Positions 17,320 through 58,514 of a stretch of DNA of 64,000 nucleotides are shown here, one piece after another. Below the pieces are notes generated by a model, which made no database searches, was not told where the DNA came from, and saw only the letters and a program-made list of their open reading frames with translations. The position numbers and the translations under genes were made by a program. Position 1 is the stretch's first letter, and every line of letters starts with the position of its first letter. Source of the DNA: Planctomycetota bacterium (GTDB taxonomy: Bacteria > Planctomycetota > UBA1135 > GCA-002748355); NCBI GenBank assembly GCA_026984035.1, contig JALSSW010000051.1:2707-66706 (forward strand), written 5' to 3'.

Positions 17320-17700
17320 CTACCGCCCTATCAGGTGAAACGTTTCAAAAACGAATTTCCCGTCTTTGACATTCCCTTTTACTTTTGCCTTTAAACCAGT
17401 TTTGTGACAAAAGGGCATGGGACCTAAGTTTAAATCTCCAAGGATCGGAATATATCGGCCATCGATTTCGATAAATTCGCCACACTTTCCAATGCCCTTA
17501 ATCGCGCATCCACACTTCACCTTATGAACGCTCTCAGGTACATGCAGGACGTTCCCCGTCTTATCCCCCGTCGTCATTCCAACCGCTTGCTTCGTTTGCT
17601 TGGGCTGATCAGCTTCCCGGACCTTCCCCCCACAAGCAAAGAGAAGGGAGAATAGGAGATAAGCAAGCTGAGAGGATTGAAACTCTTTCTTTTTTTCCAT
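17320..17700 (-). CDS. Small Cys-containing lipoprotein (resembles DUF6370-like proteins)
   Basis: LFAC lipobox; KCGC...KC...FC and a beta-rich C-terminus. Confidence 0.6.
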   Translation of the reverse strand: MEKKKEFQSSQLAYLLFSLLFACGGKVREADQPKQTKQAVGMTTGDKTGNVLHVPESVHKVKCGCAIKGIGKCGEFIEIDGRYIPILGDLNLGPMPFCHKTGLKAKVKGNVKDGKFVFETFHLIGR

Positions 17701-17785: not shown

Positions 17786-18238
17786 CTATAGCTTGGGAAT
17801 CGCATCAGCAAGAGCGCAGACTTTTTGGTAGTAATCTTCCGTTTCCAATCCCAGAAGGGCGGCCCCAAAAGCTTCGGCATCCTCATGGGTCGCGACATCT
17901 CCATAGTTGATTCTCACAAGCTGATAAGAGACCAAAAAAGGAAGAGCTTCGGGTTTGTCTTGGAAATAGGGGTGCACAAAAAGGCAAAAACCTTCACTCG
18001 GAGTCTCTCCCAGGGGAGCAGAAAACGCAAACTCACCGGGCTCGAGGGGTTCAGAGTCAAACCGAAGGATCGTTGGAAAACGTACAAGGGAAGGGTCCTT
18101 GAGGAGAGCCAGAATCTCCTCCGCCCCAATATCCCCATACCTATGCCTCGCTTCCATCGCTCGAAGAATCGCATGCTCCCTGAGGGCAAGCTTCCCATCC
18201 TCTTCGGTGGGTTGATATCGATTGTCAGACTCGCTCAT
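17786..18238 (-). CDS. Hypothetical acidic protein
   Basis: 150 aa globular-looking ORF with AGGA RBS, same strand as the upstream operon. Confidence 0.7.
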   Translation of the reverse strand: MSESDNRYQPTEEDGKLALREHAILRAMEARHRYGDIGAEEILALLKDPSLVRFPTILRFDSEPLEPGEFAFSAPLGETPSEGFCLFVHPYFQDKPEALPFLVSYQLVRINYGDVATHEDAEAFGAALLGLETEDYYQKVCALADAIPKL

Positions 18239-18396
18239 TCCTGAAAACTACCTTAGTCATCCTCTCGCGTTCTCTGAAGAGTATTTTGCCCAAAGACCAG
18301 AATCTAGGAATGCTTTGGCTTTTTCCAAGCTGAAGCAATCCAAAGGGATTGACGACAGCTTGGAAAAGCCATGGGATAAAACCCATTTCCTGAGAT

Positions 18397-18430
18397 CTTT
18401 CATGCAAAGGCCTAGGCCTTTGCATGAAAG
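18397..18430. repeat. Perfect 34-bp palindrome (probable terminator or stabilising hairpin after the hao-like gene)
   Basis: CTTTCATGCAAAGGCCT|AGGCCTTTGCATGAAAG, with smaller hairpins at 18371-18386 and 18441-18463. Confidence 0.85.
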
Positions 18431-18484
18431 GAAAACAAGCTCATGAACAAAGCGAGTTCATGAAGCAAGGAGAAAAGGGATGCC

Positions 18485-19957
18485 TCAGTTCTTGTAACGT
18501 TTTTTGAACTCTTCCCGAGCTTTCTTCCTCCTTGCAGCCTCTTCCGGACTCATCTTGTCCAGGAACCACTGATGGTCTTTTGAGTTGAGAACCTCATCAA
18601 TCTTGGCAAGCAGTTTCTTCCCGCCGGCAATCTTTTTCGGATCCCCTGAAGCGATGGCATCTTTCGCCAGCTTCTTCAAAATGGGAATGTAGTTGGCATA
18701 GAAATGCTGGGCAACCTCATAGGTCCCGTGCCAGTGCGTGTAATCGGGTCCCATCATCGAAGCGCCATGGCGTGCCCTGCGCCCCTCATGGTGCCAAATT
18801 TCAAACCAAACCCAGTCGACCTTATGGGAGAAAGGGGCCTTGTGAGGACGCAAAGGTTTTGCAAGAGCATAAAGAGCTTTTCCAGGAGCTCCGAACTTGG
18901 TGTTGTACAGGTTCACCAATCCGTCATATTGGACATAGAAATTTTCTACCCAATTCTTGTTGTGGCAAGCACTGCAAACATCCTTCATGTTCTGCCGACG
19001 AACTTGCCAAGGCACATTCGCACTGGGCAAACCCATTTTGGCATCAGCAATTTCGGGACGAACCGAAGTAATCGGACGATTGTTCCAACTGATCCTCATA
19101 CCAATGTCATGAGTCACCTTTTGGTTTTTGGTGGCGGACATATGGCAGGTAGCACAAGTCGGAGCAGCCCAATAGTCTTCACCTGCGATCCATTTCGCCG
19201 AACTCATGTTCATCTTATCTTCATTTGCGAAGAAATTGATGCCATGCTTGGACTCTTCATAGATCTCCTTTTGGGGATGATCGGGACCAAGGTGGCACTT
19301 ACCACAGGTGTTCGGATGTCGCGCTTGGGCCACAGAGAAGGAATGCCTTGTATGGCAAGCATTGCAAGAACCTTGCGTACCATCCGGATTCAAGCGGCCA
19401 ATCCCACTGTTGGGGTAAGTCGCTGGATCCAACTTGCCGTTGGCCAAGACCTTCACCGGGGCACCATGGCACTGCCAACACCCATTGACCGCTGCCGCGG
19501 AGACACCCATCGGAAAGGCTGGGGTTATCAACCCCTTGTTTCCCTCGACCACTTCGGCGAGGACATTGTCGAGAGAACCAAGAATCTTCCCCGCACTCGC
19601 GTGGTGAGAATCTTGAAACTCTTTGACTTCCTGACTATGGCACCTTGAACAATCCTTAGGACTCACAATCACTGCAATCGTGTAGTCATAATGATTGAAA
19701 GCATCCTTGTCGGATTTTTCAGCCTGATGGCATTCATAGCAGCCCACGTTCGCACGATAGTGCTTACTGCTCCCCCATTGCTGGTAGAGCCCGCGGTTCT
19801 GCTTCCTATGGCACTGGATGCACTCCTTACTCTCAGGACTGATCTGCGGCAACCCAATCGCTTGGGCCTCCAATGCGGTCGTGGTTCCAAGAACCATGGC
19901 CGGACCAGCTAAGAGAAGCAAGCAAGCGCGCCTCAATGCGGCGATCGATCGAAGCAT
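18485..19957 (-). CDS. Octaheme hydroxylamine oxidoreductase-family cytochrome c (epsilon-Hao-like)
   Basis: Sec signal; 8 CxxCH motifs (CIQCH, CYECH, CSRCH, CWQCH, CNACH, CGKCH, CATCH, CSACH); CHLGPDHPQKEIYEESKHG; WHHEGRRARHGASMMGPDYTHWHG. Confidence 0.92.
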   Translation of the reverse strand: MLRSIAALRRACLLLLAGPAMVLGTTTALEAQAIGLPQISPESKECIQCHRKQNRGLYQQWGSSKHYRANVGCYECHQAEKSDKDAFNHYDYTIAVIVSPKDCSRCHSQEVKEFQDSHHASAGKILGSLDNVLAEVVEGNKGLITPAFPMGVSAAAVNGCWQCHGAPVKVLANGKLDPATYPNSGIGRLNPDGTQGSCNACHTRHSFSVAQARHPNTCGKCHLGPDHPQKEIYEESKHGINFFANEDKMNMSSAKWIAGEDYWAAPTCATCHMSATKNQKVTHDIGMRISWNNRPITSVRPEIADAKMGLPSANVPWQVRRQNMKDVCSACHNKNWVENFYVQYDGLVNLYNTKFGAPGKALYALAKPLRPHKAPFSHKVDWVWFEIWHHEGRRARHGASMMGPDYTHWHGTYEVAQHFYANYIPILKKLAKDAIASGDPKKIAGGKKLLAKIDEVLNSKDHQWFLDKMSPEEAARRKKAREEFKKRYKN

Positions 19958-19969
19958 CGAACCTACTCC

Positions 19970-21214
19970 TTAGTTAAAGGTTTTGGTGGAAAAGGCGTTT
20001 GGCAATTCAGCCGGATGGACCGAATCAATTGTCAAGCGCCCGGAAAGTACAGGAATCGTGATCCTTACCAGGATCGTAAAAACCAGAAGACCAAAGGCCC
20101 ATATCCCAAGGCTGACCAAGATCTCATTCGTCGTTGGCTTGTATTCCACCATCTCTCCCAGGGGGCTGGGAATGAAAGCGGGAACGATCAAACCCATCCC
20201 TTTTTCAATCCAGATCCCGACAATCATTAAGGCACAGGAAAGATTGAGCCATTTCAGAGATTTGGAAATGGGAAAGAATAGAAGGACAAGGGCAAGGGAG
20301 TTCATCCCAATAGCCGTCCAAATCCAGGGAACAAGAGCATGTTTTCCCGCAAGTCCGAAGAACAGGTATTGGGCAGAGGCAGAGTGTTCGGCCTGGGTAT
20401 AGAACTCAGTAAACATCTCGGAACCTAAGAGAAACATGTTAATCGACAAGGCTACCGTGATGATCTTCCGCAGCATCTGAAGAGCACCGTCGGGGACTTT
20501 GTAATCGGAGAAACGACGAATGACCTGCAAGGCCAAAACCAAAAAGGCCGGTCCCGCAGAAAAGGCAGATGCTAAGAAACGTGGGGCAAGAACAGCGGAA
20601 TTCCAAAGAGGCCGACTCCCCAAACCGCTATAGAGAAAGGCCGTTACTGTGTGGATAGAAATGGCCCAAAAAATCGCAACAAAGACAAAGGGTATATAGA
20701 ACCATTTCCCCGGTCGAGTTCTCCGGTAGGCACAATAGATCAGGTAACCGCAGATATGGAGGTTCAAAAGAAGGTAACCATTGAGAACCAACACGTCCCA
20801 GGTCAGCATGGAGATCGGCCAATTGAACCGCAGGAATAAGTGAATGAACCGGTCGGGGCGTCCAAGATCAACGGTCACGAAAAGGAGACACATCAGGATT
20901 GAGGCAACAGCGAAGAGTTCCCCAAAAATCACTAAATCGTGAAGATCCTTGTTCTTGTAGATGTAAACCGGAATCACCAGCATGACCGCAGCAGCTGCCA
21001 TCCCCACTAGATAGGTAAAGTTGGCGATATAAAGCCCCCATGAAACCTGGTCTGTCATCCCCGTAGTCTGTAAACCATGGACAAGCTGTTGCGAATAAGC
21101 GTTGAGACCAAAAAGGGCCACCACGCTCAAAAGGAACATCCAAAGGTAGTAACGCCAATCTCCGACAAAGCTGATTCGGAAACAACGTCGCAAAAAACGG
21201 AGATAGTCTTTCAT
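19970..21214 (-). CDS. NrfD/PsrC-family membrane quinone/quinol oxidoreductase subunit
   Basis: WGLYIANFTYLVG, DLGRPDR, SIHTVTAF, WIEK; about 10 TM helices. Confidence 0.92.
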   Translation of the reverse strand: MKDYLRFLRRCFRISFVGDWRYYLWMFLLSVVALFGLNAYSQQLVHGLQTTGMTDQVSWGLYIANFTYLVGMAAAAVMLVIPVYIYKNKDLHDLVIFGELFAVASILMCLLFVTVDLGRPDRFIHLFLRFNWPISMLTWDVLVLNGYLLLNLHICGYLIYCAYRRTRPGKWFYIPFVFVAIFWAISIHTVTAFLYSGLGSRPLWNSAVLAPRFLASAFSAGPAFLVLALQVIRRFSDYKVPDGALQMLRKIITVALSINMFLLGSEMFTEFYTQAEHSASAQYLFFGLAGKHALVPWIWTAIGMNSLALVLLFFPISKSLKWLNLSCALMIVGIWIEKGMGLIVPAFIPSPLGEMVEYKPTTNEILVSLGIWAFGLLVFTILVRITIPVLSGRLTIDSVHPAELPNAFSTKTFN

Positions 21215-21226
21215 TGTGCAAGCCCC

Positions 21227-22165
21227 TCAATCACCGAAGCCATAATCTTCGTCGAAGTAATAGAAGAACCGGGGCTTGGTCCCGACCTCCTGCTTAAGGA
21301 TGAAGATTCGTTTCGTCTTCAAAATTTGAACGACCTCACTATTGGGATCATTGATGTTCCCGAACTTGCGGGCCCCTACCGGGCAGACCTCCAAACAGGC
21401 TGGGAGCTTGCCTTCACGGGTCCGATGAAGGCAAAAATGACACTTTTCCATCACCCCCTTGTGCCTTGGGCGATTGGACAGATATCCCATCTTGGGATTC
21501 AGATCTTTCTTGGGAATCTCCGGTTCGGCAAAATTGAACCGCCTTGCCCAATAAGGGCAGGCGGCTTCGCAATACCGACATCCAATACACCAGTCATAAT
21601 CGATGACAACGATCCCATCGTCTTCTTTCCATGTAGCCTCAACCGGACAAACCTTGACACATGGCGGGTTATCACACTGATGGCACTGCACAGGCATATA
21701 GAAATGGTCCTTTGAAGGAACCTTTTTATCTCCATAGTGATGATTGCTGTGTTCGAGATTGACACTTCCGCGGGGCATCTCAAGAACACGGATATACTGA
21801 ATTTCCGGACTCCGACTCTGGTTGTTCTCGGCCACACAAGCATGCACACATTTGCGGCAACCAATACAGCGACCCAAATTCAGGAGGTAGGTAAACTCCA
21901 CCCCATCCATGGGCTTCACGTCCTTAAGCTCGGGCCTAAGGTCGTAACGCTCCTCCACTTCCTTGCTGATCCGTTCAATGACTTGGTCGATTTCCTTCGG
22001 ACTCATTTCCTTGTAGTGCTTCTGTAAGAAATGGTCGACCGTCATCTCACTGAGGTCTAAATCCTTGAGGGGAGTCAGCGCTGCTGCCACTGCGGCCATC
22101 CCTCCCGCCGCTCCAAGGCTTCCACGCAGGAAGCTTCTTCGGTTCATTTTTTGTTCGCCGCTCAT
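21227..22165 (-). CDS. Tat-exported 4x[4Fe-4S] ferredoxin (NrfC/PsrB-like)
   Basis: RRSFL Tat motif; CIGCRKCVHAC, CHQCDNPPCVKVCP, CIGCRYCEAACP, CHFC..PACLEVCP. Confidence 0.93.
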   Translation of the reverse strand: MSGEQKMNRRSFLRGSLGAAGGMAAVAAALTPLKDLDLSEMTVDHFLQKHYKEMSPKEIDQVIERISKEVEERYDLRPELKDVKPMDGVEFTYLLNLGRCIGCRKCVHACVAENNQSRSPEIQYIRVLEMPRGSVNLEHSNHHYGDKKVPSKDHFYMPVQCHQCDNPPCVKVCPVEATWKEDDGIVVIDYDWCIGCRYCEAACPYWARRFNFAEPEIPKKDLNPKMGYLSNRPRHKGVMEKCHFCLHRTREGKLPACLEVCPVGARKFGNINDPNSEVVQILKTKRIFILKQEVGTKPRFFYYFDEDYGFGD

Positions 22166-22911
22166 CGCTTCTCCTTCTTGCCTGCTTTGGGGCCAAAGCC
22201 CCCGGATCCATTTTTCTTCAAGAGATAAAGAACATCCTCGCTCTCTTCCTCCCTCGGCTCTGTTTGCTCCCCCATGCGGAGCGTGTGAGGACCCGGGAGA
22301 GGTTTCAGAGGATCCATCGCGGGATGCCTGGGTTGGTGAGGGTCATGACATTGTGTACACTTCAGACGTTTCATGGGCCCCTTTCGGGTATCCCAATATC
22401 CGTTACTCCGTCCATGACTTCCTTTGACCCAATCACGATGTATTCGGACATGACATTGGGCACAGAGATTCACCACTGCTGGGTATTCGATTTTTTCTCC
22501 CTTAAGAGAAATTAAATAGTTTCGATCTTTTTGGTCATGACAAGAGAAACAAGAAGTGTTAATAGCATGCTCCAAGATTATCTCTTTGTGCTGGAGTCGT
22601 CCTTTGATTTTAGGGGTCTCGGACTTGAATGAATTATGACAGTCGTTGCAAGTCCGGTCGAAACCATTGATATGAATCTTGGGGGGTTGGACTCCAATCA
22701 TTTTTCTGCGGGGAGCTGTGCTTATTGCAGACTGATTAATTGGATATAGTTTTTTTGGGGGAAGATCAGGGGATTTCATACCCAGAAAAAACCATGCCGC
22801 AACTCCGAGAAATAAAGGCCCTAATAGCCAGGAACCTGAGCCATATTGCAAGGGTCTCTTCTCGGGAGAATCCATCTTCGGTAATTCATTCTGTTCAGGT
22901 GCCATGTGCAC
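22162..22911 (-). CDS. Membrane-anchored tetraheme cytochrome c
   Basis: One N-terminal TM helix; CNDCH, CFSCH, CAQCH, CTQCH. Confidence 0.88.
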   Translation of the reverse strand: MHMAPEQNELPKMDSPEKRPLQYGSGSWLLGPLFLGVAAWFFLGMKSPDLPPKKLYPINQSAISTAPRRKMIGVQPPKIHINGFDRTCNDCHNSFKSETPKIKGRLQHKEIILEHAINTSCFSCHDQKDRNYLISLKGEKIEYPAVVNLCAQCHVRIHRDWVKGSHGRSNGYWDTRKGPMKRLKCTQCHDPHQPRHPAMDPLKPLPGPHTLRMGEQTEPREEESEDVLYLLKKNGSGGFGPKAGKKEKR

Positions 22912-23833
22912 CTCCTGAAAGGCAGGATTCGTTTTTCTTAAAGGACGATTCCCGGCAAGGTAAAGCAGGCCCCAATTCCTGGGTCAAAGGCTTACCTTTT
23001 CCGCAGAACCCTAGTGTTAAAACTGTTTTAGGGCAAACATCGATGCATGCCCCACACCGAGTGCAACGTGAATCGGCGATACTTCCAAAACCCTTAGTCG
23101 TAAAGTTTTCCATGACCTGAATCCCCATAGGGCAATGGGTCGTGCAAAGCCCGCAAAGTGTCTTTCCCGCCCTGGATTTGGAAATACATATACGGAAAGG
23201 GGCAGCCTTCCCTAGAAGACTGTAAAACCCACCAAGGGGACAAAGCGATCGGCACCAAAACCGGGGAAGAACCCACTCCAAGATGCAAAGAATAAGGAGA
23301 ACAAGAAGCCCCCCCCAAACTCCAAAAACGATTCCCCATCCAAGAAAATTAATGGGTGAGAATGTCTGAAAAAGGGGAAATCCAGCGAAGAGACTGAAGG
23401 ACAGAACAAAGAGAAGGAGAGGGAAACGCAAGCCATCTGGAGGTTCCAAAAGGGGTAACCCTTTTCTGCCCTTAAGGTGTATGCGGTGCCGAACCTTTCG
23501 ACTCAAGGTTTCATTCAAATCCAGGACAAAGCCTAGGGGACAAATCCACCCACAGAACACAGGCCCAAGAAGCAAAGCAAGAAGGACGAGCAATCCCGCC
23601 CCAATCCAAATCAAGGGTTTTGTCACACCTCCGGCAAGAAGGACCTCCAACGAAGCCAAGGGATCGGTGAAAGGAACAATCCCAAAAATTCTTGTTCCGG
23701 TCGTCCCCCCTCGGAACCAGGAAATCCAATCTAAAGCCCCAAGAACAAGCAAAACCAAGAACAGAAAAGCCGTGGTCCGCCGCAAAATAGTATGGATCTT
23801 CAGATGTTTCCTCTTTGGGCTCTTGGCGTTCAT
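22895..23833 (-). CDS. napH: Quinol dehydrogenase membrane ferredoxin subunit NapH
   Basis: DPLA, FCGWICPLG, WCRSLCPLG, CGLCTTHCP, CTRCGACIDVCP; follows napG. Confidence 0.9.
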   Translation of the reverse strand: MNAKSPKRKHLKIHTILRRTTAFLFLVLLVLGALDWISWFRGGTTGTRIFGIVPFTDPLASLEVLLAGGVTKPLIWIGAGLLVLLALLLGPVFCGWICPLGFVLDLNETLSRKVRHRIHLKGRKGLPLLEPPDGLRFPLLLFVLSFSLFAGFPLFQTFSPINFLGWGIVFGVWGGLLVLLILCILEWVLPRFWCRSLCPLGGFYSLLGKAAPFRICISKSRAGKTLCGLCTTHCPMGIQVMENFTTKGFGSIADSRCTRCGACIDVCPKTVLTLGFCGKGKPLTQELGPALPCRESSFKKNESCLSGGAHGT

Positions 23834-23835
23834 CC

Positions 23836-24423
23836 TTAACCAACTCCCTCATTCGAATTCGCGGGACGAACAACGATGGAACTCTTTTCTGTAATGCACG
23901 CTTCCTCACAGATCCCGCAACCCACACAAGCTTTTGGATCTATGGTTGGCCGCATGCGTTTGTCATAGACAAGTGCCGTTCCCTGAAAGGGGCAAACGCG
24001 CCAACAAACCCGGCAGGTCACTCCATTGAAGGCAAAACAAGTTTTGTGATTGATAACAGCTGTCCCCATTCGAACCTTGGAACGGTCCTCAACTGGCTCC
24101 AGTGCTCCTGAAGGACAAGCTCCAATGCATTTGAGTTCGTCCTCATTTGTGCAGAGGTAGCAGGGAACTTTCCTGGCCTCAACATGGGGGGTTCCCATCG
24201 CAAGCCCGCCCCCAAGACCAAACAACTTAAGGCTGTCATAGGGGCAGGCTTCGACACATTGGCCGCAACGAATACATGTGGCGAGGAATTCCTTTCCTTC
24301 CCTCGCTCCTGGAGGACGCAAAGCGACGGGACCACTCCCGGAAAGCAGAGAGCTTATGAACCCTGAGCTTCCTCCCAAGAGAAGGCCGCAACCCCCTAAA
24401 AATTTTCGTCGGCTGATGTTCAT
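23836..24423 (-). CDS. napG: Periplasmic ferredoxin-type protein NapG
   Basis: SRRKFL Tat motif; LRPPGA; CIRCGQCVEACP, PCYLC..C..ACP, C..CRVCWRVCP, CVGCGICEEAC. Confidence 0.92.
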   Translation of the reverse strand: MNISRRKFLGGCGLLLGGSSGFISSLLSGSGPVALRPPGAREGKEFLATCIRCGQCVEACPYDSLKLFGLGGGLAMGTPHVEARKVPCYLCTNEDELKCIGACPSGALEPVEDRSKVRMGTAVINHKTCFAFNGVTCRVCWRVCPFQGTALVYDKRMRPTIDPKACVGCGICEEACITEKSSIVVRPANSNEGVG

Positions 24424-24448
24424 TCTTCAAATGGGATCCGGGGAAGGA

Positions 24449-25111
24449 TTAGTGTCCCTCCTTTTTGACATCAATGACACGGACTTGCACATGGCAAGAA
24501 CGGCACTTGGCTTTGAGAAGGATTCTGGGCATCTCCTTGTGCTTCACGATAGGAGCCCCTCGAATCCCGGAATCATGGCAAAGGAGGCAGCGGTTATTCC
24601 CCCATACTCCCTTATGCGAAGGAGAGTTGGGAATCATCGGAGGAAAAGCATTCCCAAGAAACCCTTTTGGGTCTTTTTTAATGACCTTGGCCTTGGAACC
24701 GGGGATTCTCACATGACAGGAGCGACACTTTGCAGTCAAGAGACGTTTGGGCATCCCCTTATGATGAACCTCGGGGGCTTTCCCCACACCAGTTTCATGG
24801 CAGCGAAGACAATCATTCTTTTTCCAACCCTTCTGATGATAAGGGAGATCCGACAAGGTGGGTGGGAATGCATTGCCTTCGAAAGGCCCCGGTTTCCTTT
24901 TCGTCACCTGGACCTTTCCTTTGCGATCCTTTTTAGAAACAACCTTGCCCTGTTTTGTTGGAACTACCAGCTTGGATGCTTTCGTCCGTTTTTTCTGGAC
25001 CACAGGCTTAGACTGGGATTTCTGCGTAGCGGGAAGGAGAGCATCTCCCCCTGAAGCTGCGCAACCAATCACAAGGATGCCTAGGAAGGCGATGGGGATT
25101 CTCGCTTTCAT
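24449..25111 (-). CDS. napB: NapB-like cytochrome c, lipoprotein, with tandemly duplicated diheme domain (4 hemes)
   Basis: Directly after napA; VIGC lipobox; two PP..H..N.CL.CH..AP...H...CRSCHV units. Confidence 0.78.
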   Translation of the reverse strand: MKARIPIAFLGILVIGCAASGGDALLPATQKSQSKPVVQKKRTKASKLVVPTKQGKVVSKKDRKGKVQVTKRKPGPFEGNAFPPTLSDLPYHQKGWKKNDCLRCHETGVGKAPEVHHKGMPKRLLTAKCRSCHVRIPGSKAKVIKKDPKGFLGNAFPPMIPNSPSHKGVWGNNRCLLCHDSGIRGAPIVKHKEMPRILLKAKCRSCHVQVRVIDVKKEGH

Positions 25112-25128
25112 GATATCGTCCTCCAGGA

Positions 25129-27444
25129 TTAGGCCTTTGCCAGTTTGACAGCGCAGATCTTGAATTCAGGCTGTTTCGAACCTGGGTCATAAGCGTCAAT
25201 GGTCACTCGATTGATGAGAGAGTTCGTGTCTTCCCAACACCAGGGAACAAACACCATCCCTACTCGGGGCATCCCTGTAATGCGGGCCTTGATCAACGCC
25301 TCTCCACGGCGCGAGGTGATCCGAACCATATCTCGATTTCGCAGACCTAACTTCTTTGCATCGACGGGATTGATCTCGATATAGGCTTCGGGATATGCCC
25401 GCTTTAGCTCAGGAGCGCGCATGGTCATGGTTCCCGTGTGCCAATGCTCCAGGACACGACCGGTGGAGAGGATGTAGGGATATTCCTTATCCACAGGTTC
25501 AGCCGGCCCCAAGGCCGGTCTCAGCCAAACGGTAGCCCGATAGTCTTTGGCTGCATAGAATTTGATATCCCCTTCATTCAAAGAGTCATCCGCATAGGGG
25601 CCGTGATCCAAGATCGGATCTTCGCCCTTAACAAAGCGACGGGCGGTTCCGGGATGGTCGATGGTCGGGGCAGGCCAACGGATGCCCCGCTCTTTTTTCA
25701 GACGGTCCCTGGTCATCCCCATAAAATCATAGGCGGTATTCTTAGACGCATGGCGCATCTCATTCCAAACATCATCGCATGTCTTCAATTTGGAAGAGAC
25801 ATAGCCTTTCGGAATGACCCCCCTTTCCTCGAGCAACCCGGCGAAATCGAGAAGGATTTCTAAATCAGGCCGGGCTTCACCCGGAGGAGTAACAAGGGCG
25901 GGCTGATACTGATAGCGCCGTTCGGACATGCCAAAGACCCCGAGTTTCTCCGACCACATTGCAGCAGGAAGAATGACGTCCGCGAGTTCTGTCGTCCGTG
26001 TGGGGAAGATATCAAGGACCACAATAAATGGCTTACCCGGCCTGGCTTTCCCCATTGCATCCCTATAAGGAGTCAAATTGGGTAAAGACTGCCCCGGGTT
26101 GGTGGTCAGAATCAGCATGGCCTTGATTTCATTACGACCCAGGGCTCGGAACATCTCAATCGTATTTTTGCCGGGCTTAGGCTTGATCGTGCCTGGTTTG
26201 GCCCCCCAGATCTTCTCCATCTCAGCCCGATGCTTCGCTTTTTTTACCGATCTCCCATAGGGAAGAATATGGCAAAGGGAACCAGTGTCGCGAACCCCGC
26301 CACAGGCATTGGGTTGGCCGGTCAAAGAGAAAGGTGTCATCCCCGGCTTCCCGATCTGACCAGTAATCAGATGGAGATTGTGCATCAAGTTGTTGGCCCA
26401 GACTCCACGAGTTCTTTGATTTAAACCCATGGTCCAAAAGGTCATGGTCGGACCATTGGCAAAGAGTCGAGCCGCCTCCACAATTTTTTGTGCAGGGACG
26501 CCCGAGATGAGCTCCGCTTGTTCCGGGCTGTACTGGTCCAAGAATTTGACATAGCCCTCAAAGTCGACCTTTTTGGGGCGACCGTTCTCTACGATTTTGA
26601 ACTGGCATTGCTTAGCAATAAAATCGGCGTCATATTTTTTCTCTTTGACGATCACATGCGCCATCGCATGGAACACTGCTAAGTCATACCCGGGAACCGG
26701 GTCCAAATGGATATCCGCAATGGATGTCACCGGACTCTTTCTGGGGTCACAAACAATGACCAAGACATCGTTATGGGCCTCTTTGCGGGCAAGAATCTGG
26801 TCAAAAATCACGGGGTGACACTCAGCTGTGTTGGAACCGACCAGGAAAAAGACCTTCGCATGATCGATATCGTCATAACAACCCATAGGTTCATCTTTCC
26901 CAAAGGTCGAAACATAGCCCCCCACCGCAGAAGCCATGCAAAGCCTCGGATTCCCCTCTACATTGTTTGTGCCAATCCCCCCCTTAAAGATCCGATTCGC
27001 CAAATAACTTTCCTCAGAAAGTGCTTGTCCCGAACCGTAATAAGCGACCGAATCAGGTCCATGTTTCCGAATCGAATCAGCAAATCGATCCCCGATCAGC
27101 TTCATGGCTTCATCCCATGAAGCCTGAACGAATTTCCCATTCTTCCGGATCATGGGGTGCTTCAGGCGGTCGGGCGCGTGAACAATCTTGGGAAGGAAGA
27201 GAGACTTAGCGCAAACTAAGCCTTTGGTTGTTGGATGCTTGGGATCGCCCCTCAGGGCTACCAACTTTTTGTCTCGAATCCCAAGCATGACACCACAGCC
27301 TGTCCCACAAAAGCGGCAAACTGATTTGTGCCAAGTGACCTCCGAGGATTCCAGGGTCGAGGAGGCTAGAGCTTTACCTTCCGCGACAGATGCGACGGCC
27401 GCCATGGCGGACGTTCTAAGAAAGTCTCGACGATTCATTGCCAT
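25129..27444 (-). CDS. napA: Periplasmic nitrate reductase catalytic subunit (Mo-bisPGD, 4Fe-4S)
   Basis: RRDFL Tat motif; CRFCGTGC..C; RLCMASA Mo ligand; FSLTGQPNACG; TGRVLEHWHTGTMT; KQPEFKICAV. Confidence 0.95.
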   Translation of the reverse strand: MAMNRRDFLRTSAMAAVASVAEGKALASSTLESSEVTWHKSVCRFCGTGCGVMLGIRDKKLVALRGDPKHPTTKGLVCAKSLFLPKIVHAPDRLKHPMIRKNGKFVQASWDEAMKLIGDRFADSIRKHGPDSVAYYGSGQALSEESYLANRIFKGGIGTNNVEGNPRLCMASAVGGYVSTFGKDEPMGCYDDIDHAKVFFLVGSNTAECHPVIFDQILARKEAHNDVLVIVCDPRKSPVTSIADIHLDPVPGYDLAVFHAMAHVIVKEKKYDADFIAKQCQFKIVENGRPKKVDFEGYVKFLDQYSPEQAELISGVPAQKIVEAARLFANGPTMTFWTMGLNQRTRGVWANNLMHNLHLITGQIGKPGMTPFSLTGQPNACGGVRDTGSLCHILPYGRSVKKAKHRAEMEKIWGAKPGTIKPKPGKNTIEMFRALGRNEIKAMLILTTNPGQSLPNLTPYRDAMGKARPGKPFIVVLDIFPTRTTELADVILPAAMWSEKLGVFGMSERRYQYQPALVTPPGEARPDLEILLDFAGLLEERGVIPKGYVSSKLKTCDDVWNEMRHASKNTAYDFMGMTRDRLKKERGIRWPAPTIDHPGTARRFVKGEDPILDHGPYADDSLNEGDIKFYAAKDYRATVWLRPALGPAEPVDKEYPYILSTGRVLEHWHTGTMTMRAPELKRAYPEAYIEINPVDAKKLGLRNRDMVRITSRRGEALIKARITGMPRVGMVFVPWCWEDTNSLINRVTIDAYDPGSKQPEFKICAVKLAKA

Positions 27445-27581
27445 TTTTCATTCTCCGAAGGGGTCCTTCCATTTTTGGGATCGAGAAAACCTCCAGCTCC
27501 CAAAGTTCTTGCAGCTTGTTCCAATAAAGAGATCTCAACTTGTGCCTTAAAAAACTTCATGTGGCCTCAGGGCCTCGCCTC

Positions 27582-28010
27582 CTATTCCCATTGGGTCGAG
27601 ATAGGCCAAGCGGCTTGCACTCCCTCCACTTGAAGGAGTTCTTCTTGGAGCCTCTGATGGGCCTGGTCAAAGCTCCCCGCTTCAATCAGCACCCCCACTC
27701 TCCCCCTTTCACCGAGAGAAAAGGATTCCATTCCTGGAAGAGAATCGATGCACTCACAAACCTCCCCCATCAATGGAGGAAAAACTCGGCACAGGACCCC
27801 AACGACCACATAGCTTGGCTTGGTCGAGGCATCCACATCTTTGCGGGGATCCCTTCTGGAGGAAGTTTCCTGGCCGACCCTCTCCTCGAATAGAATCCCG
27901 CCTTCTGTTTTGGGCTGAGCTTGCATTGCTTTTTCTTCCTTCTTTTCCACCGGATTTTTACATCTCCATTCTTCCCGGAATGGAAAGATCTCTTCTCTTG
28001 GATCGGCCAC
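27582..28010 (-). CDS. napD: NapD-like chaperone (start uncertain)
   Basis: Upstream of napA; ferredoxin-like pattern VVGVLCRV..LPGME..GRVGVLIEA..LLQVEGVQAA. The N-terminal ~60 aa may not be translated. Confidence 0.75.
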   Translation of the reverse strand: MADPREEIFPFREEWRCKNPVEKKEEKAMQAQPKTEGGILFEERVGQETSSRRDPRKDVDASTKPSYVVVGVLCRVFPPLMGEVCECIDSLPGMESFSLGERGRVGVLIEAGSFDQAHQRLQEELLQVEGVQAAWPISTQWE

Positions 28011-50458: not shown

Positions 50459-53400
50459 TTATTTAGTCCTTCTGAGCTCAACCCCCTTCTGCTTGTTGCG
50501 GAACAGCGATTTGAGACTTTCACCACCCTTTTCTTGCAAACGCTGTAGCTGGATGTTGTTCATCTGAAGAAGATCTGTCTGCACCGGTTTTACCTTCGAT
50601 TTGGCACGGATAGGGACCTGCCCCGTGGGACTCGGTAACGGCAATCCAAAGCTCTGCTTGCTCCGATAAAAGGCATACGTCTTCCCCGACTCAACAAGGG
50701 CGGTTACATGACCCGCCAAAGCATCGGCGACAAACACTCCCCGAAGGTCTGTCTTACCAGACTGGATTTTTGGAGAGCCACTCCCCAAGACTTTCACTCG
50801 AGCACCAGAAAGTCTTTGGCCGGCCTGAGTCACGTTGAGCCTTAATCTTCCCTGCCTTGGAAATTCTTGAGCTTCGATTCGGATCCCGGTGCGAAGCAAA
50901 AGCCCGGAACTCTTGAGGGAACCAGTCCGTGCAATCACCAAGAACGCACCCTTGGATCCCAAGGGCAGGGAAACCTTTTTTTCGAAATCCAAATAAGGTC
51001 TCGCCCCTTCCAAAAGAATTTTCAACTGCAATGTCGGCTTGATTCCAAAAAGTCGGACATTGCCTATATCCGACAACGAGCGCCGGAGCAGGTAAAGGCG
51101 CATGAGATCCACCTTGTAAACAAGGATTTCTACTTTGCTGAGATTGCGAGTCTGCAGCTTAATCGAAGGATTCTCATCTGGAGCAACCACAGTGGTTTCG
51201 GGAAGATGCAATTTCTTTCTCTCGAAATAAGCAGCCGCCTCCTTGGCTTCTACAAAATCCTTGTCGACCTTATGGTAAAAGGGAAGGGCTAAAGCAGGAT
51301 CCCCCTCAGCGTGGTAACATTGGGCCTCCAAGAATAGGGCCAGCTTACGGTTGGGGCTGGGCCCTTTCCGCCCACCGCTCAAGAGAAACTTCGCATGGAT
51401 GACAGGATCCAAAACCTTTCTGGCCTGAGCAAAGTCTCGTTGCAGGAAACGGGCATAACCCTCCAGGTATAGGAAATCGTCAAACCAAGGCGAACTCGCA
51501 TAGGTTTTGGTCGCCCGCTTTAAGAGGGCGAGAGCCTCCTTCCACTGCTGGGCTTCGAGGGCAATATTGACCAGAGAATAGCAGACCTCATCCGCATCTC
51601 CATCGGAGGGAAAACGTAGGAGAAACTCATAGCAAAGGTCCCGCGCCTGTTTTTTTAGTAACATCGCGCTGCCGATTTTCGGATCCAAGCGTCCTGCCTG
51701 TTTCCGCTTTTCGGCCAAAGCATTCATACCCTGTGCAAGCGAATACATGGCCCGACGAATCTCCGAAAGCCCCGGAAACTCAAGGAAAAGTCGGCCCATA
51801 ACCATTAGTGCATCTTGGACGCGACCTCGGTTTTTGAGGGTCCCCGCCACCTGAACCTCTCGTAGAAACAGCGTCTCCGCCACGGCCTGAAAAACGTAAA
51901 GGGACCGCTCAAACTCGCCAGCTTTGAAGTAAGCGTTTCCAATTGCTGCCATATCATCAAAGCCCAGCACAAAGTCCGGATTGCGATCCTTGAGAGCTTC
52001 AAACAGTTCGAGGATGGGTTTGCCCTTTCCTCGGATGAGGCGCACCGTCAGCAAGCGTTTGGCGATTTCGAGAAATGGCCCCTTTTTCATCTCCTTGCCG
52101 AACTGCTTCATACAGGCTTCCAGAGGTTCCTCGACGCCAGGAAGAGTTGAGGGGTTTTTCCGAAGCCCTTCTCGTCCCAGAGCATCAAACCGTCTCAAGC
52201 CCAGGTTGAAGAGCTCATCCGGAGTGGCTTTGCGAGGAACCCTGGATGCTTTGCCGTCCTTGACCACCTTCAGTGCAAGGGGACTTCCGAAGCGAGGCTT
52301 GCCGTTGCCTCTAAGGCTCACGACTCGAGTGGGAAGAATATGATAGGTACCTGAATAAACTCCTCGCAGGGCGAAACGAAAAACAAAATTGCTCTTTCCT
52401 TGGGCTCGACAGAAGAAGCGTATGCTTCCCCCTCTCATCTCCACGAACTGGAAAGGCCCCTGAATCTCTTCGCGCCGAACCATGGCCCCCCCAGGCAGAT
52501 TCTCTTCCACAATAAAATAGCGAAACTCTTCGCGTTTGTTTTCGGGAAGGTTGATCTCCAATTCTTCTATAATCTGCCGTCCCGCTTCCACACGATCAGT
52601 TTTGTTTTCCCAAGTTTGAAAACCTTCCCCCATGATGGAAAAACCCTCCCTCAGAACTGCGCCATCTACGATCGGAGGGGCTTGGAGGTAGGCCCGCTTG
52701 ATATGAGGATCTCCCATGCGATCTTTGGGCATCCCCACAGTCCAAGCCGAAAGCTGGGCGGACCATGCGACTTTGCCCAAACCCGAGCTTACGAAATCCA
52801 CGAGGACCTCGCCACCTTTCAAAAACTTGGATGGGACTTCAAAGACCTTGCCTTGGGGGTGATCGCGAAGAGACAAACTCTGAGTCCAGACTCCATGTCC
52901 GAGATTGATTTCAACCCGGGCAGCCGCCTGGCCCAGTTTCTTGTATCGAGAAGCTAGGAACTCACTCACAAGGGCCGCAACCACACGATCTTCCCTGTTG
53001 ATCGCCGCTGTTTTCGAAAAGGCCCAGGACTCGCCTCTTGCCCTAAGTTCGGGATTCGCTTCGGCCTCCTCAAGGGCCAGATAAGCCCAAGCCAGAGATC
53101 GGTCCCCGCCTGTCCCCCCATCCTTGGGGGTTCTCCCGACTTTCTGTTCGAGCAGGGGCAACAACTCTTTAGCCAGCCCCGGCCGACGCATCCGAAGGGC
53201 AGCCAGAACTAAGCGCCCCAACGCACCAGCACTCATCCCCTGGCGCCCTCGCCTAAGCTGATTGAATTTCGCAAAGTCCGCCATTCCCCCTTCGGCCATA
53301 GCCAAAAAAGCTAGGGTCGCTTGTTCCAAAGAAGAGGAACGAAGCCATGCCATTCCCCGATTGCGAACACGCCCGAAAACCAGGGGATCCACGGCAAAAC

Positions 53401-56400
53401 CAGCCTTAAAAGCCTTCTCAAAAAACAACCAGGGATACAGGTTGGTTTCGGGCAGGTCCCCTAAGCTCCGGTTGCCGATCCAAGCGAAGTTCCCCCCTCG
53501 CTCCGCGCTGATCAAGGAAGCAAGAGTATTTCGAACCTGATCACTAAGCGCTCGCGAGAGGAGGGCATCACTCCGCTCCCCTCCCAGCTTTTGCCAGAGC
53601 CCGAGGGCTCCCAAACCCATCGCAGCCCGATCCGTCGTCAAGGCAAGCGGAGCAATCCGACTCGAGAAGAGAAAATCTCTAACGATAACTTCGATCGAAG
53701 GTGGTGAAACACGAATCACCAACCTTCTGTCTCGATGCGGCCCCTTTCCTAAGTTGAGGCGGACTCTCCGGGAACCAGAGAAAATTCCTGCTTTCGCAAT
53801 CTGATCGGGCAAGGCCCAGGGATACACGAAAAAGGGATGGGTCACGCTCTCCTCCCCCACCCGAATCTGTAGGGCGTGGGAGCCGACTTGGAGAGCTCCA
53901 TCCCCAAGGCCCAGAGCCTTGGGATCCACAAAGACACTGGCCATGGAGCCAGCGGGAATTCGCAGGGCCTTCCTCCGCAAAGACCCTCCATCAAGAGTAA
54001 AGAGAAGTTCTCCTCGGATTTCCTCCTCGCTGCGGTTGTGCACTTCAATTTCGCCCTCGAAGCTGTCCTTTTCAGTGAGGATTCGAGGTAAACGAGCACG
54101 CAACACGATGGGGTTGCGCGTTTGAACTTCCGCCTTTGCTTCGCCAAAGAGGCTTCCTTTATCCACCCCTCGGAGACGAAGAGACCATTTTCCAGCCCGT
54201 TTGGGGAGCATACATTCGAGGCGTGCTCTCCCCTTGGCATCGGTCCGGACCACGGCCCGCCAAACCGAAAGATCCGAAGGAAGAACTCGGTTCGGGTCTT
54301 CCTGTGTGAACCTTCCCAAAAACTGAGATCCGAACCTCGACCCAAGGCTCGAAAGTTGTTCGGACCCAAGACCGTTGCCTGCTCCCCAATTTGAGCCGGG
54401 ACGCATCCCTTGGCTTAGATTGCCAAAATTCTGGGCTTCCTTATCAAGCTTCCGGTCCTCCCCCATTTTCTTGGCTGCCCCCCTCCTTTGAGCTGTTCTC
54501 CTTCCAGCCCTTACCCTCAGGCCTGGGGAAGAGGGTCCATAAGAGCCCCCAAAAGCATCGGCGGGGCCCCAGGGTTTATCCCCCGACTTCGCTTTCTCCC
54601 TCTCTTCTCGATGGAGATTGAGGTTGACCAAGCGGGTGGGAGGATTGAGTTGGAACGTACAGGAGCTCTTCGTCAGAACCTTCGTATCCCTACGAACATT
54701 GGGACCGAAGAAAACCTGATAGAGGCCCGGACTGTGATCCTTGAAGCGTTGCAAAACAGCTGCGTCCACTGCAGCGAGCGAGAACTCAGCCTCTACGGGT
54801 CGACCCTGGCTGTCTCGAACTTGGATGTCCACCCCCAGTTTCTTGCCTGGAGCAAGAACTTTGGCACCCAGCTTCATCTCTACATCCATGGGAACAGAGA
54901 CCGTAAACTCCTTGCGAGCCGCATGCAGCTTGGATTTGTCAACCATAGCTAAGGCATAGGCGAAGTTGGGAGCATGGCGCTGCTCGATCTTGAGGCGAAT
55001 CGTTGTGACGCCCGAAGCAATGACCCGAGGCTCAAAGTCCAAAACTCCGCCTGCCTCGGTCGTCAACAGGCATAACCTGGGTTGACTGCGATTGACGATA
55101 CGCAGTTCAACTTGGTCCCCCACCCGCGCGTGCTGGGTTCGCGCAAGAAGCCGCAGCTTGATCTTGTCTTCCTTGCCTGAGACAAAAAACTCCTTGCGAG
55201 CCTCGACCCGATGTCCAAAACGATCCCTGCCTGCGACGACAAGACGGTAGTTTCCCCCCTCCCCCAGATTGAAGCTTGCAAAAGCAATCCCCCGCCCTGA
55301 CACCGTCTTGAGGCTTTGGCGTGCAGCCACCCGCGTTTCCACTCGTCCTTCAACGGTAAGCAAGCGCATGAGGGTAAACTCAAGTTCTCGAACCAGCGGC
55401 TTTCCCTCGAAGTCTGTTGCTTTCGCAACCGCTTCCAGGAACTCCCCCGCAAGGAAGATCCCCTGGGGAATTTTTAGATCCAACTGAAATCCGGTCTGTT
55501 TCACAGGAACGATTTTTTGACCGAAAGCTTCCTCCTCGGGTATAGAGGCAATCAGAACGATGTCTCTAAGGGGACGCCTTGGGTCCGTCTCAAAGCGGAA
55601 GCTGAACTCCCCCGCTCCATTGGTCACGCCTTCATAGACTTTCTGCCCTTCTAGCAGAGTAGAACGAACCTGAATCTTGCGACCACGAACCGGTCCACCA
55701 AAGAAATAGCGCGCCCGAACCTTTCCCTTAAGAGGCTCGCCACGAGTGATCGAACGATGCGGCAATACGATCTCCAGCGACACCTTGGGAGGGTGAAAAT
55801 CAAGGACCTCAACCCTGTAAGAAGCAAGAAAGCGGCGATCCTTCTTCCGAAACAGCTTAAGGATCCAAGTTCCAAGGTTAAGATCTTTTGGTAAACGAAA
55901 GCGGGTATGGAGAGTCCCAAACTCCGAAAGCTTGAGCTCATGCACAAAGAGACTGCGGGAGCCAGGATCTACCAGAGCAAGTCGATATTCTTTCTCCTCC
56001 GGTAATACGTAGCTTCCATTCATGACATCGCGCAAAACAGCTTTGACCCCAATCCAATCCCCCGGTCGATAGCTGGGGCGGTCGGTGTATATCACACTGG
56101 TCGGAACAAAACTCCGCGCTTGGCCACTCGTCCCCAAAGGGTGCAGGTCACTGAAAGCCACGCCGTCTTTGCCGACAACCAGGACACTCCAGTTTTTCCC
56201 TCGCTGCTCGGGTTTCAGGGGAAAGTGGCAGCCTCCCTTTGCATCCGTCCTAGCCTCGGCGACGATTTGCTTTCCATTGGAAAGAAGGACACGAACACCT
56301 GGGGCCGGGTCCAGTGTCCTGGTATTTTCTACGAAAGCAAAGACCTCATTTGTGCTCACTTTTTGGATCAAAGCAAGGTCCGAGACAAGCACAAGAGAGG

Positions 56401-58198: not shown

Positions 58199-58514
58199 TG
58201 CATCCTCGGGAATCAAGAGTGAGAGGGGGCCGGAGACCAAGAATCAGGATACAACGGATCCTTTCCAAAACGGTTCCCAAGAAGAAAACCTAAAACCGAA
58301 AAAGCTCCCTATGATCCTATATGACTGAAGGCCTCGCCCATCAGTGGGGGGTAGGGAAGAAAAATCGCCCGGTGGATGGAGCGAAATGATGGATCCAAAA
58401 GGCAGAAACGTAAAAAAACAATGACAAGCAAGAAGACACCTTGTCATTGGAAAGAAAATGATAGAATAGGAAGGATTCTCAAATCCCTTCCCTCATCCCC
58501 AGAGTCATTCCAAT

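Follow-up and report, generated by a model that had tools for sequence, protein, structure and literature searches.

A planctomycete gene cluster joining periplasmic nitrate reductase, an NrfD-type module and a Hao-family octahaem cytochrome: a candidate unit for NrfA-independent nitrate ammonification

Can a planctomycete reduce nitrate to ammonium in its periplasm without the pentahaem nitrite reductase NrfA? The question is raised by a cluster of genes on the minus strand of a 64,000-nucleotide stretch (here called the window) of contig JALSSW010000051.1, which belongs to the Planctomycetota metagenome-assembled genome (MAG) GCA_026984035.1. The cluster combines genes of a periplasmic nitrate reductase (nap) with genes of an NrfD-type membrane module, a gene (hao) for an octahaem cytochrome c of the HAO family and a small conserved gene, orf150. 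Going by the families and the conservation of the encoded proteins, we think it rather probable that the ten genes form a respiratory unit for NrfA-independent periplasmic reduction of nitrate to ammonium. The features of the locus, in the order of transcription, are the following.

27582..28010, minus strand: napD-like chaperone gene; the listed open reading frame (ORF) has 142 amino acids, with a weak Pfam NapD match over residues 69-135
25129..27444, minus strand: napA, catalytic subunit of periplasmic nitrate reductase, short 'monomeric' class, with the twin-arginine signal NRRDFL
24449..25111, minus strand: tetrahaem c-type cytochrome of 220 amino acids ('NapB-like'), four CxxCH motifs, lipoprotein-type signal ..VIGC
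23836..24423, minus strand: napG, periplasmic poly-ferredoxin with a twin-arginine signal; NapG is the best NCBIfam family
22895..23833, minus strand: napH, quinol dehydrogenase subunit in the membrane; best family NapH/MauN, Pfam Fer4_5
22162..22911, minus strand: membrane-anchored tetrahaem cytochrome c of 249 amino acids, four CxxCH motifs, Pfam Paired_CXXCH_1 and Cytochrome_C7
21227..22165, minus strand: periplasmic four-cluster [4Fe-4S] protein of the NrfC/PsrB/DsrO kind, twin-arginine motif RRSFLR, Pfam Fer4_11
19970..21214, minus strand: NrfD-family integral membrane quinol-interacting subunit, DsrP-like, Pfam NrfD 151 bits
18485..19957, minus strand: hao, periplasmic octahaem cytochrome c of the HAO family, 490 amino acids, eight CxxCH motifs, Pfam Multi-haem_cyto
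18239..18484, minus strand: hao-orf150 spacer of 246 bp, with a weak terminator-like hairpin at 18464-18440
17786..18238, minus strand: orf150, following hao in the same orientation; a conserved partner of this Hao clade, cytoplasmic

The ORF list of the window contains nine co-oriented ORFs in succession from 28010 to 18485, and their family matches agreed with the kinds of gene named in a preliminary description of this DNA, although several of the names were refined. That description had overlooked the tenth conserved gene at 17786-18238, 3' of hao, so that the full order is napD-A-tetrahaem-G-H-tetrahaem-FeS-NrfD-hao-orf150. From the napD-like gene to hao the gaps are, in order, 137, 17, 25, 2, -17, -4, 12 and 12 bp. 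As had been noticed before, the genes from napA onward are near-contiguous or overlapping (-17 to 25 bp, all under 30 bp), and this close spacing suggests co-transcription from napA to hao. The count of 16 CxxCH motifs (4 + 4 + 8) was reproduced as well, and the operon proteins contain no CxxCK motif. A promoter/terminator scan yielded no promoter-like sites beyond those of shuffled sequences (5 vs 7.8) and only weak hairpins. No match was obtained when the segment 17000-28500, including the 137-bp napD-napA and the 246-bp hao-orf150 spacers, was scanned with Rfam at E<=1.

Two junctions of the cluster were bridged by contigs of the independent run X2: napH/tetrahaem by record 13 (22844-22983) and NrfD/Hao by record 11 (18632-21717). 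Moreover, the full gene order of the cluster was found again in other MAGs (L006, L010). Because the junctions are bridged independently and the order recurs, the adjacency is not an assembly artefact; nap, the module and hao are neighbours in this genome.

The octahaem protein matched PF13447 (Multi-haem_cyto) with 87.6 bits, the cut-off being 21.9. The closest solved relative was the octahaem cytochrome of Ignicoccus hospitalis, 4QO5 (E 4e-52 by single-sequence and 2e-65 by profile search), followed by the Kuenenia HAO lacking the cross-link tyrosine (Tyr-less), 6H5L (E 4e-18), and by Nitrosomonas HAO, HOX and HDH, all at about E 1e-9 to 1e-18. Residues D226 and H227 correspond, in a gap-free part of the alignment, to residues 267/268 of the Nitrosomonas HAO chain 4FAS, which we take to be the catalytic Asp-His pair. 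The C-terminal region was not aligned to Nitrosomonas HAO by single-sequence or profile searches of solved structures. The position of the cross-link tyrosine was located by way of an anammox genome (G032), whose HAO paralogues served as a bridge and were aligned with the octahaem protein and 20 of its orthologues. The column of Trp409 is occupied by Tyr in the HDH orthologue L093 (near-identical to 6HIF), in the HOX-like paralogue L089 and in the Nitrosomonas-HAO-like paralogue L086, whose Tyr aligns with residue 467 of the NeHAO chain 4FAS. The same column is Trp in L087, the near-identical orthologue of the Tyr-less nitrite-reducing HAO 6H5L. In the window protein Met401 stands eight residues ahead of Trp409; a Met followed by a Trp eight residues later has been described as the signature of epsilon-Hao (PMC8940962, citing Haase et al.). 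Conservation is nearly complete: M401, D226 and H227 occur in all 80 sequences compared and W409 in 79, and eight CxxCH motifs are present in all 79 orthologues examined. Since Trp replaces the cross-linking Tyr467, the octahaem protein was assigned to the reductive type. Judged from its sequence, it is a reductive-type HAO-family enzyme (epsilon-Hao/IhOCC-like) and a probable nitrite/hydroxylamine reductase.

The anammox genome G032 also codes for an octahaem protein of 554 amino acids (L096, G032:C1:283862-287188) that is 53-55% identical to the window octahaem and agrees with it letter for letter in the stretch MMGPDYTHW, at the cross-link region.

Whether another nitrite reductase is available to the organism was looked up in the host MAG (3.8 Mb, 210 contigs, 90% complete). 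The lack of nrfA and napC/nrfH, reported earlier for the window, was found to extend to the genome: NrfA (PF02335) gave no match above cut-off, and none of 28 scored candidates matched NapC/NrfH (PF03264) at E<=1e-3. Similarly, in this genome NirS was not found, NirK gave no match above cut-off, and neither Hcp nor a sirohaem nitrite/sulfite reductase (NIR_SIR) was detected. Nitric oxide reductase (NOR) was likewise not detected in this MAG; the two COX1 matches represent a fused cbb3 CcoNO and an aa3 oxidase. NosZ had no match in the genome, a result that is uninformative as the query was silent in every control genome too. The octahaem gene is the sole HAO-family gene of the host. The cbb3 subunit I/II fusion CcoNO has 783 amino acids (L085, G000:C14:224-2575) and is separate from the aa3 oxidase. 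Given these two oxidases the organism is probably facultative or micro-aerobic rather than a strict anaerobe.

The distribution of the genes was then considered in a sample of 201 Planctomycetota genomes. An HAO-family match at E<=1e-30 was present in 56 of the 201, and a close full-length octahaem orthologue (>=62% identity) in 10. NrfA occurred in 53 genomes of the sample, in 0/10 of the orthologue carriers vs 53/191 of the others. Many of the 56 positive genomes contain a second, larger Hao subfamily, with ORFs mostly of ~530-720 amino acids, that matches the window octahaem in two pieces with ~50-56% identity and has an insertion near residue 172 (examples are G113:C24, G066:C1 and G200:C4).

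To place the cluster among its relatives, a scan with one genome per species (~186,000 species genomes) was used. It returned at least 594 pattern matches, at least 591 of which encode an octahaem relative. The best 80 of these relatives, 60-76% identical to the window protein except for one at 93%, defined 80 loci, all ORFs of which were clustered with shadow ORFs flagged; many of the loci are truncated and the counts are therefore lower bounds. Most of the loci come from Planctomycetota (Phycisphaerae and others), and Verrucomicrobiota are also represented. By MAG label the remainder includes Gammaproteobacteria, Deltaproteobacteria, Calditrichaeota, Cloacimonadota, Omnitrophota, Lentisphaerae and Neomarinimicrobiota. 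Beside hao, the gene for the NrfD-like protein was present in 57/80 loci, that for the iron-sulphur (FeS) protein in 55/80, that for the anchored tetrahaem cytochrome in 52/80 (upstream of the FeS gene) and orf150 in 42/80 (downstream, on the same strand).

A napA gene was located within 10 kb of hao in 18 of the 80 loci. In eight of them napA is of the short type, 73-76% identical to the window NapA. Canonical NapA was the best family for 10 of the 11 other neighbouring NapA-like ORFs, seven scoring above 904 bits and three between 790 and 904 (one of these three is truncated); the L069 ORF gave no family match. Relative to the module, nap stands upstream in L006, L008 and L010 and downstream in L004, L009, L011, L012 and L016. 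The occurrence of two NapA subtypes in two arrangements argues for a functional link rather than for inherited synteny.

Some further neighbours of hao were recorded in these loci. Genes for Rrf2-family regulators adjoin hao in 10/80 loci (e.g. L065:15753-16232, L011:6497-6967 and L046:10985-11377) and are absent from the window; Rrf2 is the family of the nitric oxide (NO) sensor NsrR. Sigma-54 response regulators were seen near hao in 11 loci and Crp/Fnr-family regulators in four. An Alginate_exp-like outer-membrane beta-barrel (representative E 2e-36) is encoded within a few kb of hao in 17/80 loci (e.g. L077:8485-9891, L007:12100-13557 and L070:8726-9937), often directly upstream of hao where the NrfD module is absent. 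The barrel could act as a porin for anions or as a cytochrome conduit.

The genes preceding hao could supply it with electrons. The NrfD-like protein contains eight strongly hydrophobic segments by a crude scan and is 61-79% identical across related loci. The label 'NrfD-like' of the preliminary description holds for the broad Pfam family and can be refined to DsrP-like, because the NCBIfam DsrP model was passed (427.5 bits, threshold 350) and the NrfD equivalog TIGR03148 was not (29.9 vs 348). The FeS protein scored best with DsrO (179.4 bits, cut-off 200), then with QrcC and TtrB, and reached only 120 vs 378 bits with NrfC (TIGR03149). An alignment of 21 sequences showed complete or almost complete conservation of the 16 Cys residues in its four cluster motifs. 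In two loci (L037:7624-8637 and L044:7096-8127) the first motif of the FeS subunit reads C-x-G-N-x-x-C and not C-x-x-C-x-x-C; the first cluster of these two proteins is probably lost or altered. The anchored tetrahaem cytochrome has a single N-terminal transmembrane segment (residues 27-45, by hydropathy), and its gene overlaps napH by 17 bp. In profile searches it matched generic multihaem models only, with no NapC/NrfH and no DsrJ match. The same searches detected no DsrM, DsrK or DsrJ in the operon and no DsrM/DsrK beside it, which identifies the three proteins as a DsrJOP/NrfBCD-like trio and not as a Dsr complex. It follows that automatic annotation probably misnames the NrfD-like gene as a DsrP/sulfate-reduction protein, here and in many relatives. 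The gene content thus supports the earlier proposal that there are two separate quinol-oxidising inputs, NapGH and NrfD/FeS/tetrahaem. The assignment of the DNA to a planctomycete, which the preliminary description had called probable, was supported too.

NapA, with the Pfam domains Molybdop_Fe4S4, Molybdopterin and Molydop_binding, is most similar among solved structures to Desulfovibrio desulfuricans NapA (2JIO/2NAP, E 1e-243 over residues 37-771), and by this similarity it is of the monomeric Desulfovibrio type. NapA was also its best NCBIfam family, at 681 bits; membership of the short class explains why the score stays under the cut-off of 904. The gene that follows had been called 'NapB-like'. 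The term is appropriate for its sequence units, but the protein is a tetrahaem cytochrome of two halves, not a plain NapB. The halves are 55% identical (E 3e-24), which marks the cytochrome as a NapB-like dihaem unit duplicated in tandem. In alignments it is distantly similar (E 9e-8) to a tetrahaem protein of L046 that matches Pfam NapB and lies beside a canonical NapA, and it is kept adjoining napA in six loci. A search against solved structures found no relative. Its position in the operon is that of NapM in the Desulfovibrio-type nap operons described in PMC5276818, PMC6896113 and PMC5317091.

NapG scored 179.7 bits vs a cut-off of 269 (the MauM/NapG subfamily, 141 vs 178.85) and NapH/MauN 180.6 vs 213. 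Hydropathy indicated about four transmembrane segments and a cytoplasmic 2x[4Fe-4S] domain in NapH. The napD-like gene matched Pfam NapD at E 1.2e-3 with 19.4 bits, under the 28-bit cut-off, and the ATG at 27926, preceded by a purine-rich stretch, is probably its true start. Homologues with 31-42% identity lie directly upstream of napA in eight related loci. The names napD, napG and napH are based on these below-cut-off best families together with gene order and conservation beside napA in related loci.

Taken together, the genes suggest the following scheme. NapA, carrying molybdenum-bis(pyranopterin guanine dinucleotide), would be exported by the twin-arginine translocation (Tat) system with the help of the NapD-like chaperone. 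Electrons would pass from menaquinol to NapH in the membrane, to the periplasmic FeS protein NapG and on to NapA, the relay between NapGH and NapA probably being the lipid-anchored tetrahaem cytochrome made of two NapB-like units. NapA would convert nitrate to nitrite in the periplasm. A second quinol dehydrogenase of NrfBCD/DsrJOP-like build, composed of the DsrP-like NrfD subunit, the Tat-exported FeS protein and the anchored tetrahaem cytochrome, could pass electrons to the soluble octahaem protein. The substrate of the latter would be nitrite, together with hydroxylamine or NO if these arise, and the product most likely ammonium. The path from nitrate through nitrite to ammonium is the preferred interpretation because the Hao lacks the cross-link tyrosine, because NapA subtypes stand near hao in 18/80 loci and because no other nitrite reductase was found. 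Cultured NrfA-less carriers of nap and hao are described as nitrate ammonifiers (PMC5276818, PMC6896113, PMC5317091).

The last gene is orf150. Its protein has neither a signal peptide nor a membrane segment and matched no Pfam family at E<=10, and the protein atlas gave only 'hypothetical protein' clusters. In 26 aligned sequences residues H22, D48, Y105, N111, G113, E122, F124, G125, Y137, C141 and D145 are invariant. An AlphaFold2 model was obtained with a predicted local distance difference test score (pLDDT) of 94.8. Foldseek found no match to this model in the PDB at E<=1e-3. VIA-align 2 ranked minimal zinc-metallopeptidase folds first, with Z 8.9-6.0: the ImmA-like domain of a mycobacterial regulator (8.9), PprI (8.3), abylysin (7.8), CapP (6.9) and selecase (6.8). 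Such Z values are in a range where a match may reflect a common arrangement of elements, but the theme is consistent. In the alignment the HExxH motif is absent from orf150, the corresponding helix reading ..Y-[HQ]-L-V-x-I-N-Y-G... The model thus shows a predicted zincin-like fold without HExxH. Protein-atlas leads to a peptidase scored no better than chance (0.82-0.83). Three further roles were considered and found no support: a chaperone of Tat signals, a subunit of the NrfD complex on the cytoplasmic side, and a degenerate regulator of the ImmA-like kind.

In the phylum sample orf150 was detected in 8/201 Planctomycetota genomes, seven of which carry the Hao orthologue on the same contig, adjacent or within ~4 kb; the eighth genome is 69% complete. 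It occurred in none of the sampled Planctomycetota genomes that have only more distant Hao paralogues. By its conservation and position orf150 is the tenth gene of the unit, predicted to encode a cytoplasmic accessory protein specific to this Hao clade.

Several observations weigh against nitrate ammonification by the ten-gene unit. NapA, NapG, NapH and NapD all stay under curated NCBIfam/Pfam cut-offs. A spacer of 246 bp with a weak hairpin lies between hao and orf150; in other loci the two genes are mostly 30-120 bp apart. No napA was present within 10 kb of hao in 62/80 loci, so the module is not bound to Nap. The MAG is 90% complete, which makes the absences provisional, and since the genomes of the sample are related and not independent, the 0/10 count for NrfA is suggestive only and statistically weak. 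Lastly, the products of Tyr-less HAO enzymes are reported to differ, the Kuenenia enzyme making NO from nitrite, and in Table 2 of PMC6896113 Deferribacter desulfuricans goes no further than nitrite despite its nap-hao.

The example of Kuenenia leads to an alternative in which the octahaem protein is an NO-forming nitrite reductase. Denitrification would then be truncated or shared within the community (nitrate to nitrite to NO), and the NO would be disposed of by other enzymes, the cbb3 oxidase for example, or by cells nearby. L087, near-identical to Kuenenia 6H5L, shares the Trp column with the window octahaem, the genome yielded neither NirS nor NirK, and the octahaem of Phycisphaerae has been suggested as a replacement of NirK/NirS that could give NO or ammonium (PMC11266412). 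Yet the similarity of the window protein to the Ignicoccus octahaem (E 4e-52) is far greater than that to 6H5L (E 4e-18), and the protein has the pair of Met and, eight residues on, Trp that is typical of the ammonium-forming epsilon-Hao (PMC8940962). No match to NOR or, with its silent control, NosZ was seen in the genome, and the cultured NrfA-less nap-hao carriers make ammonium (PMC5276818, PMC6896113, PMC5317091). We consider formation of NO as the main activity unlikely.

Alternatively, the Hao module might mainly detoxify nitrite, hydroxylamine or NO produced by Nap or by neighbouring cells, without energy conservation, and its link with nap would be protective. The Rrf2-family regulators beside hao in 10/80 loci fit this explanation, as do the aa3 and cbb3 oxidases, which indicate that the organism is not an obligate anaerobe, and the 62/80 loci where the module has no nearby napA. 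Against this, a dedicated three-subunit quinol dehydrogenase of the NrfD type, 61-79% conserved across phyla, is a heavy cost for a protective function, and the genome yielded no other nitrite reductase, whether dissimilatory or assimilatory. Detoxification as the main role was given a low probability. A non-nitrogen substrate of the NrfD/FeS/tetrahaem/octahaem module (sulfite, tetrathionate, polysulfide or a metal), with nap adjacent by accident, appears very improbable: multihaem enzymes are promiscuous, the NrfD and FeS subunits score best with DsrP and DsrO, and sulfur compounds were named as the alternative for a related locus by Slobodkina et al. (PMC5276818), but NapA of two independent subtypes recurs by hao in both gene orders, the catalytic Asp-His pair of the HAO family is invariant, and DsrM, DsrK and DsrJ are missing from the operon.

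Nitrate ammonification remains the preferred function of the ten genes. The preliminary description had not recognised the architecture as a characterised operon. This is correct insofar as no such operon has been characterised biochemically, but the arrangement had already been described (PMC5276818). The operon architecture is therefore not new, its kind having been proposed in print for a few cultured bacteria. According to Slobodkina et al. 2017 (PMC5276818) Thermosulfurimonas dismutans and Dissulfuribacter thermophilus, nitrate ammonifiers lacking NrfA, possess an 11-gene cluster consisting of napMADGH, two genes of unknown periplasmic proteins and a four-gene locus for a Hao-homologous multihaem cytochrome, an NrfD-family protein, a periplasmic 4Fe-4S protein and a membrane cytochrome c. 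The authors hypothesised that the four-gene locus reduces nitrite in nitrate ammonification and mentioned sulfur compounds as the alternative. Compared by description, these clusters agree with the one in the window in that a NapC-less Nap adjoins genes for Hao, NrfD, an FeS protein and a cytochrome c, and that the genome lacks NrfA. They differ in having napMADGH instead of napD-A-tetrahaem-G-H and two genes that part the loci; the description of the clusters makes no mention of orf150, and the hosts are thermophilic Thermodesulfobacteria/Deltaproteobacteria, not Planctomycetota.

As far as they are described, the epsilon-Hao enzymes of Campylobacterota (Nautilia, Campylobacter, Caminibacter) resemble the window octahaem in lacking the cross-link Tyr and in having Trp in its place and Met eight residues before. 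The 'reverse-HURM' proposal reportedly concerns the same epsilon-Hao system. These enzymes, often co-located with nap, are taken to reduce nitrite and hydroxylamine (PMC8940962, and PMC5317091 citing Haase et al. 2017). Their partner is a tetrahaem protein of the NapC/NrfH type (CycB in PMC5276818), unlike the NrfD/FeS/tetrahaem module found here, which has no PF03264 match. A nap-epsilonHao cluster was reported for Caldithrix abyssi by Kublanov et al. 2017 (PMC5317091), who also refer to earlier co-location in Epsilonproteobacteria and Denitrovibrio, and a 'nap-hao gene cluster' for Deferribacter by Slobodkin et al. 2019 (PMC6896113). In both, as in the window, a Desulfovibrio-type Nap without NapB and NapC is joined to epsilon-Hao, and both papers describe NrfA-less ammonifiers (PMC5317091, PMC6896113). 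In their published descriptions neither has the NrfD module: the electron input to Hao in Caldithrix was proposed to be a Rieske/cytochrome b complex or alternative complex III (ACIII) (PMC5317091), and in Deferribacter a decahaem cytochrome plus Hcp (PMC6896113), the latter not found in the genome studied here.

The path from an NrfD subunit through a Tat-exported four-cluster FeS protein and a small multihaem protein to a periplasmic multihaem nitrite reductase is that of E. coli NrfABCD. The window differs in its terminal enzyme (an HAO-family octahaem with eight CxxCH vs the pentahaem NrfA with CxxCK) and in its relay (an anchored tetrahaem vs the soluble pentahaem NrfB), and its subunits score far below the cut-offs of the NrfC and NrfD equivalogs. 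Ignicoccus 4QO5 is likewise a member of the HAO family without Tyr at the cross-link column, where it has Phe. It is archaeal and alignable to the window octahaem in three stretches only, and its partners and role are not established in the account given in PMC4429474. From DsrMKJOP the module is distinguished by the lack of DsrM/DsrK and by a four-haem cytochrome; the DsrP model was passed and that of DsrO was not reached.

Related genes have been noticed in Planctomycetota before. In two Planctomycetota MAGs, Suarez et al. 2023 (PMC10732223) found a multihaem cytochrome, a 4Fe-4S protein and NrfD downstream of nap, hypothesised a novel membrane-bound nitrite reductase, and listed hao and napAB together in many MAGs. 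The main cluster of that work differs from the one in the window: it resembles ACIII (with a pentahaem, a molybdopterin-like fusion, ActD and CcoP), and no link to hao is described for it. Hao/'Onr' genes of Phycisphaerae are mentioned in both PMC11266412 and PMC10732223. Octahaem proteins that are positive with the Hao hidden Markov model may, according to PMC11266412, replace NirK/NirS, and the cultured planctomycete Poriferisphaera corsica encodes such an octahaem (PMC11266412). In a microbial mat Tyr-less hao was the most abundant nitrogen-cycle gene (PMC8940962). In a literature search neither orf150 nor the planctomycete unit of ten genes was found described; supplementary tables may list these genes.

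Other parts of the window contain typical planctomycete genes, unconnected to the operon. A 2593-amino-acid ORF at 50459-58240 (minus strand) has TPR repeats and bacterial alpha-2-macroglobulin domains (MG2, bMG3, A2M), and the segment 2661-5162 encodes a protein with the PSCyt1 'planctomycete cytochrome C' domain. Between orf150 and the MscS channel gene lies an ORF of 126 amino acids (17320-17700, minus strand) whose N-terminus is lipoprotein-like and which weakly matches DUF6370 (E 2.9e-3); this ORF is kept only in the nearest relative L082 (53%).

What is added here to the systems described before is the tested absence of the cross-link tyrosine, the finding that the tetrahaem-FeS-NrfD-Hao unit is widespread and modular and is repeatedly paired with two NapA subtypes, and its complementarity with NrfA in the phylum sample; the conserved, unannotated cytoplasmic orf150 is a small new lead. 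No new category of system is opened. The kind was proposed from the genomes of a few cultured thermophiles and has never been purified or knocked out, and the tight operon of Nap, an NrfD-type quinol dehydrogenase and an octahaem protein provides a clean experimental target.

The fate of nitrate, retained as ammonium or lost as gas, is usually inferred from marker genes, nrfA being the marker of ammonification. The module described here could carry out ammonification without nrfA, and it is common: there are at least 591 octahaem relatives, and the Hao family is present in 56/201 Planctomycetota genomes. A bolder proposal, which we regard as possible but doubtful, is that the five-gene unit of tetrahaem, FeS, DsrP-like NrfD, octahaem and orf150 is a distinct, laterally mobile quinol:nitrite oxidoreductase that may conserve energy. 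In Planctomycetota, Verrucomicrobiota and several further phyla most NrfA-independent ammonification of nitrite would then run through it, and orf150, zincin-like but without its HExxH motif, would be a new kind of cytoplasmic factor for maturation or control that serves this complex alone. If this is true, surveys based on nrfA would systematically miss this route.

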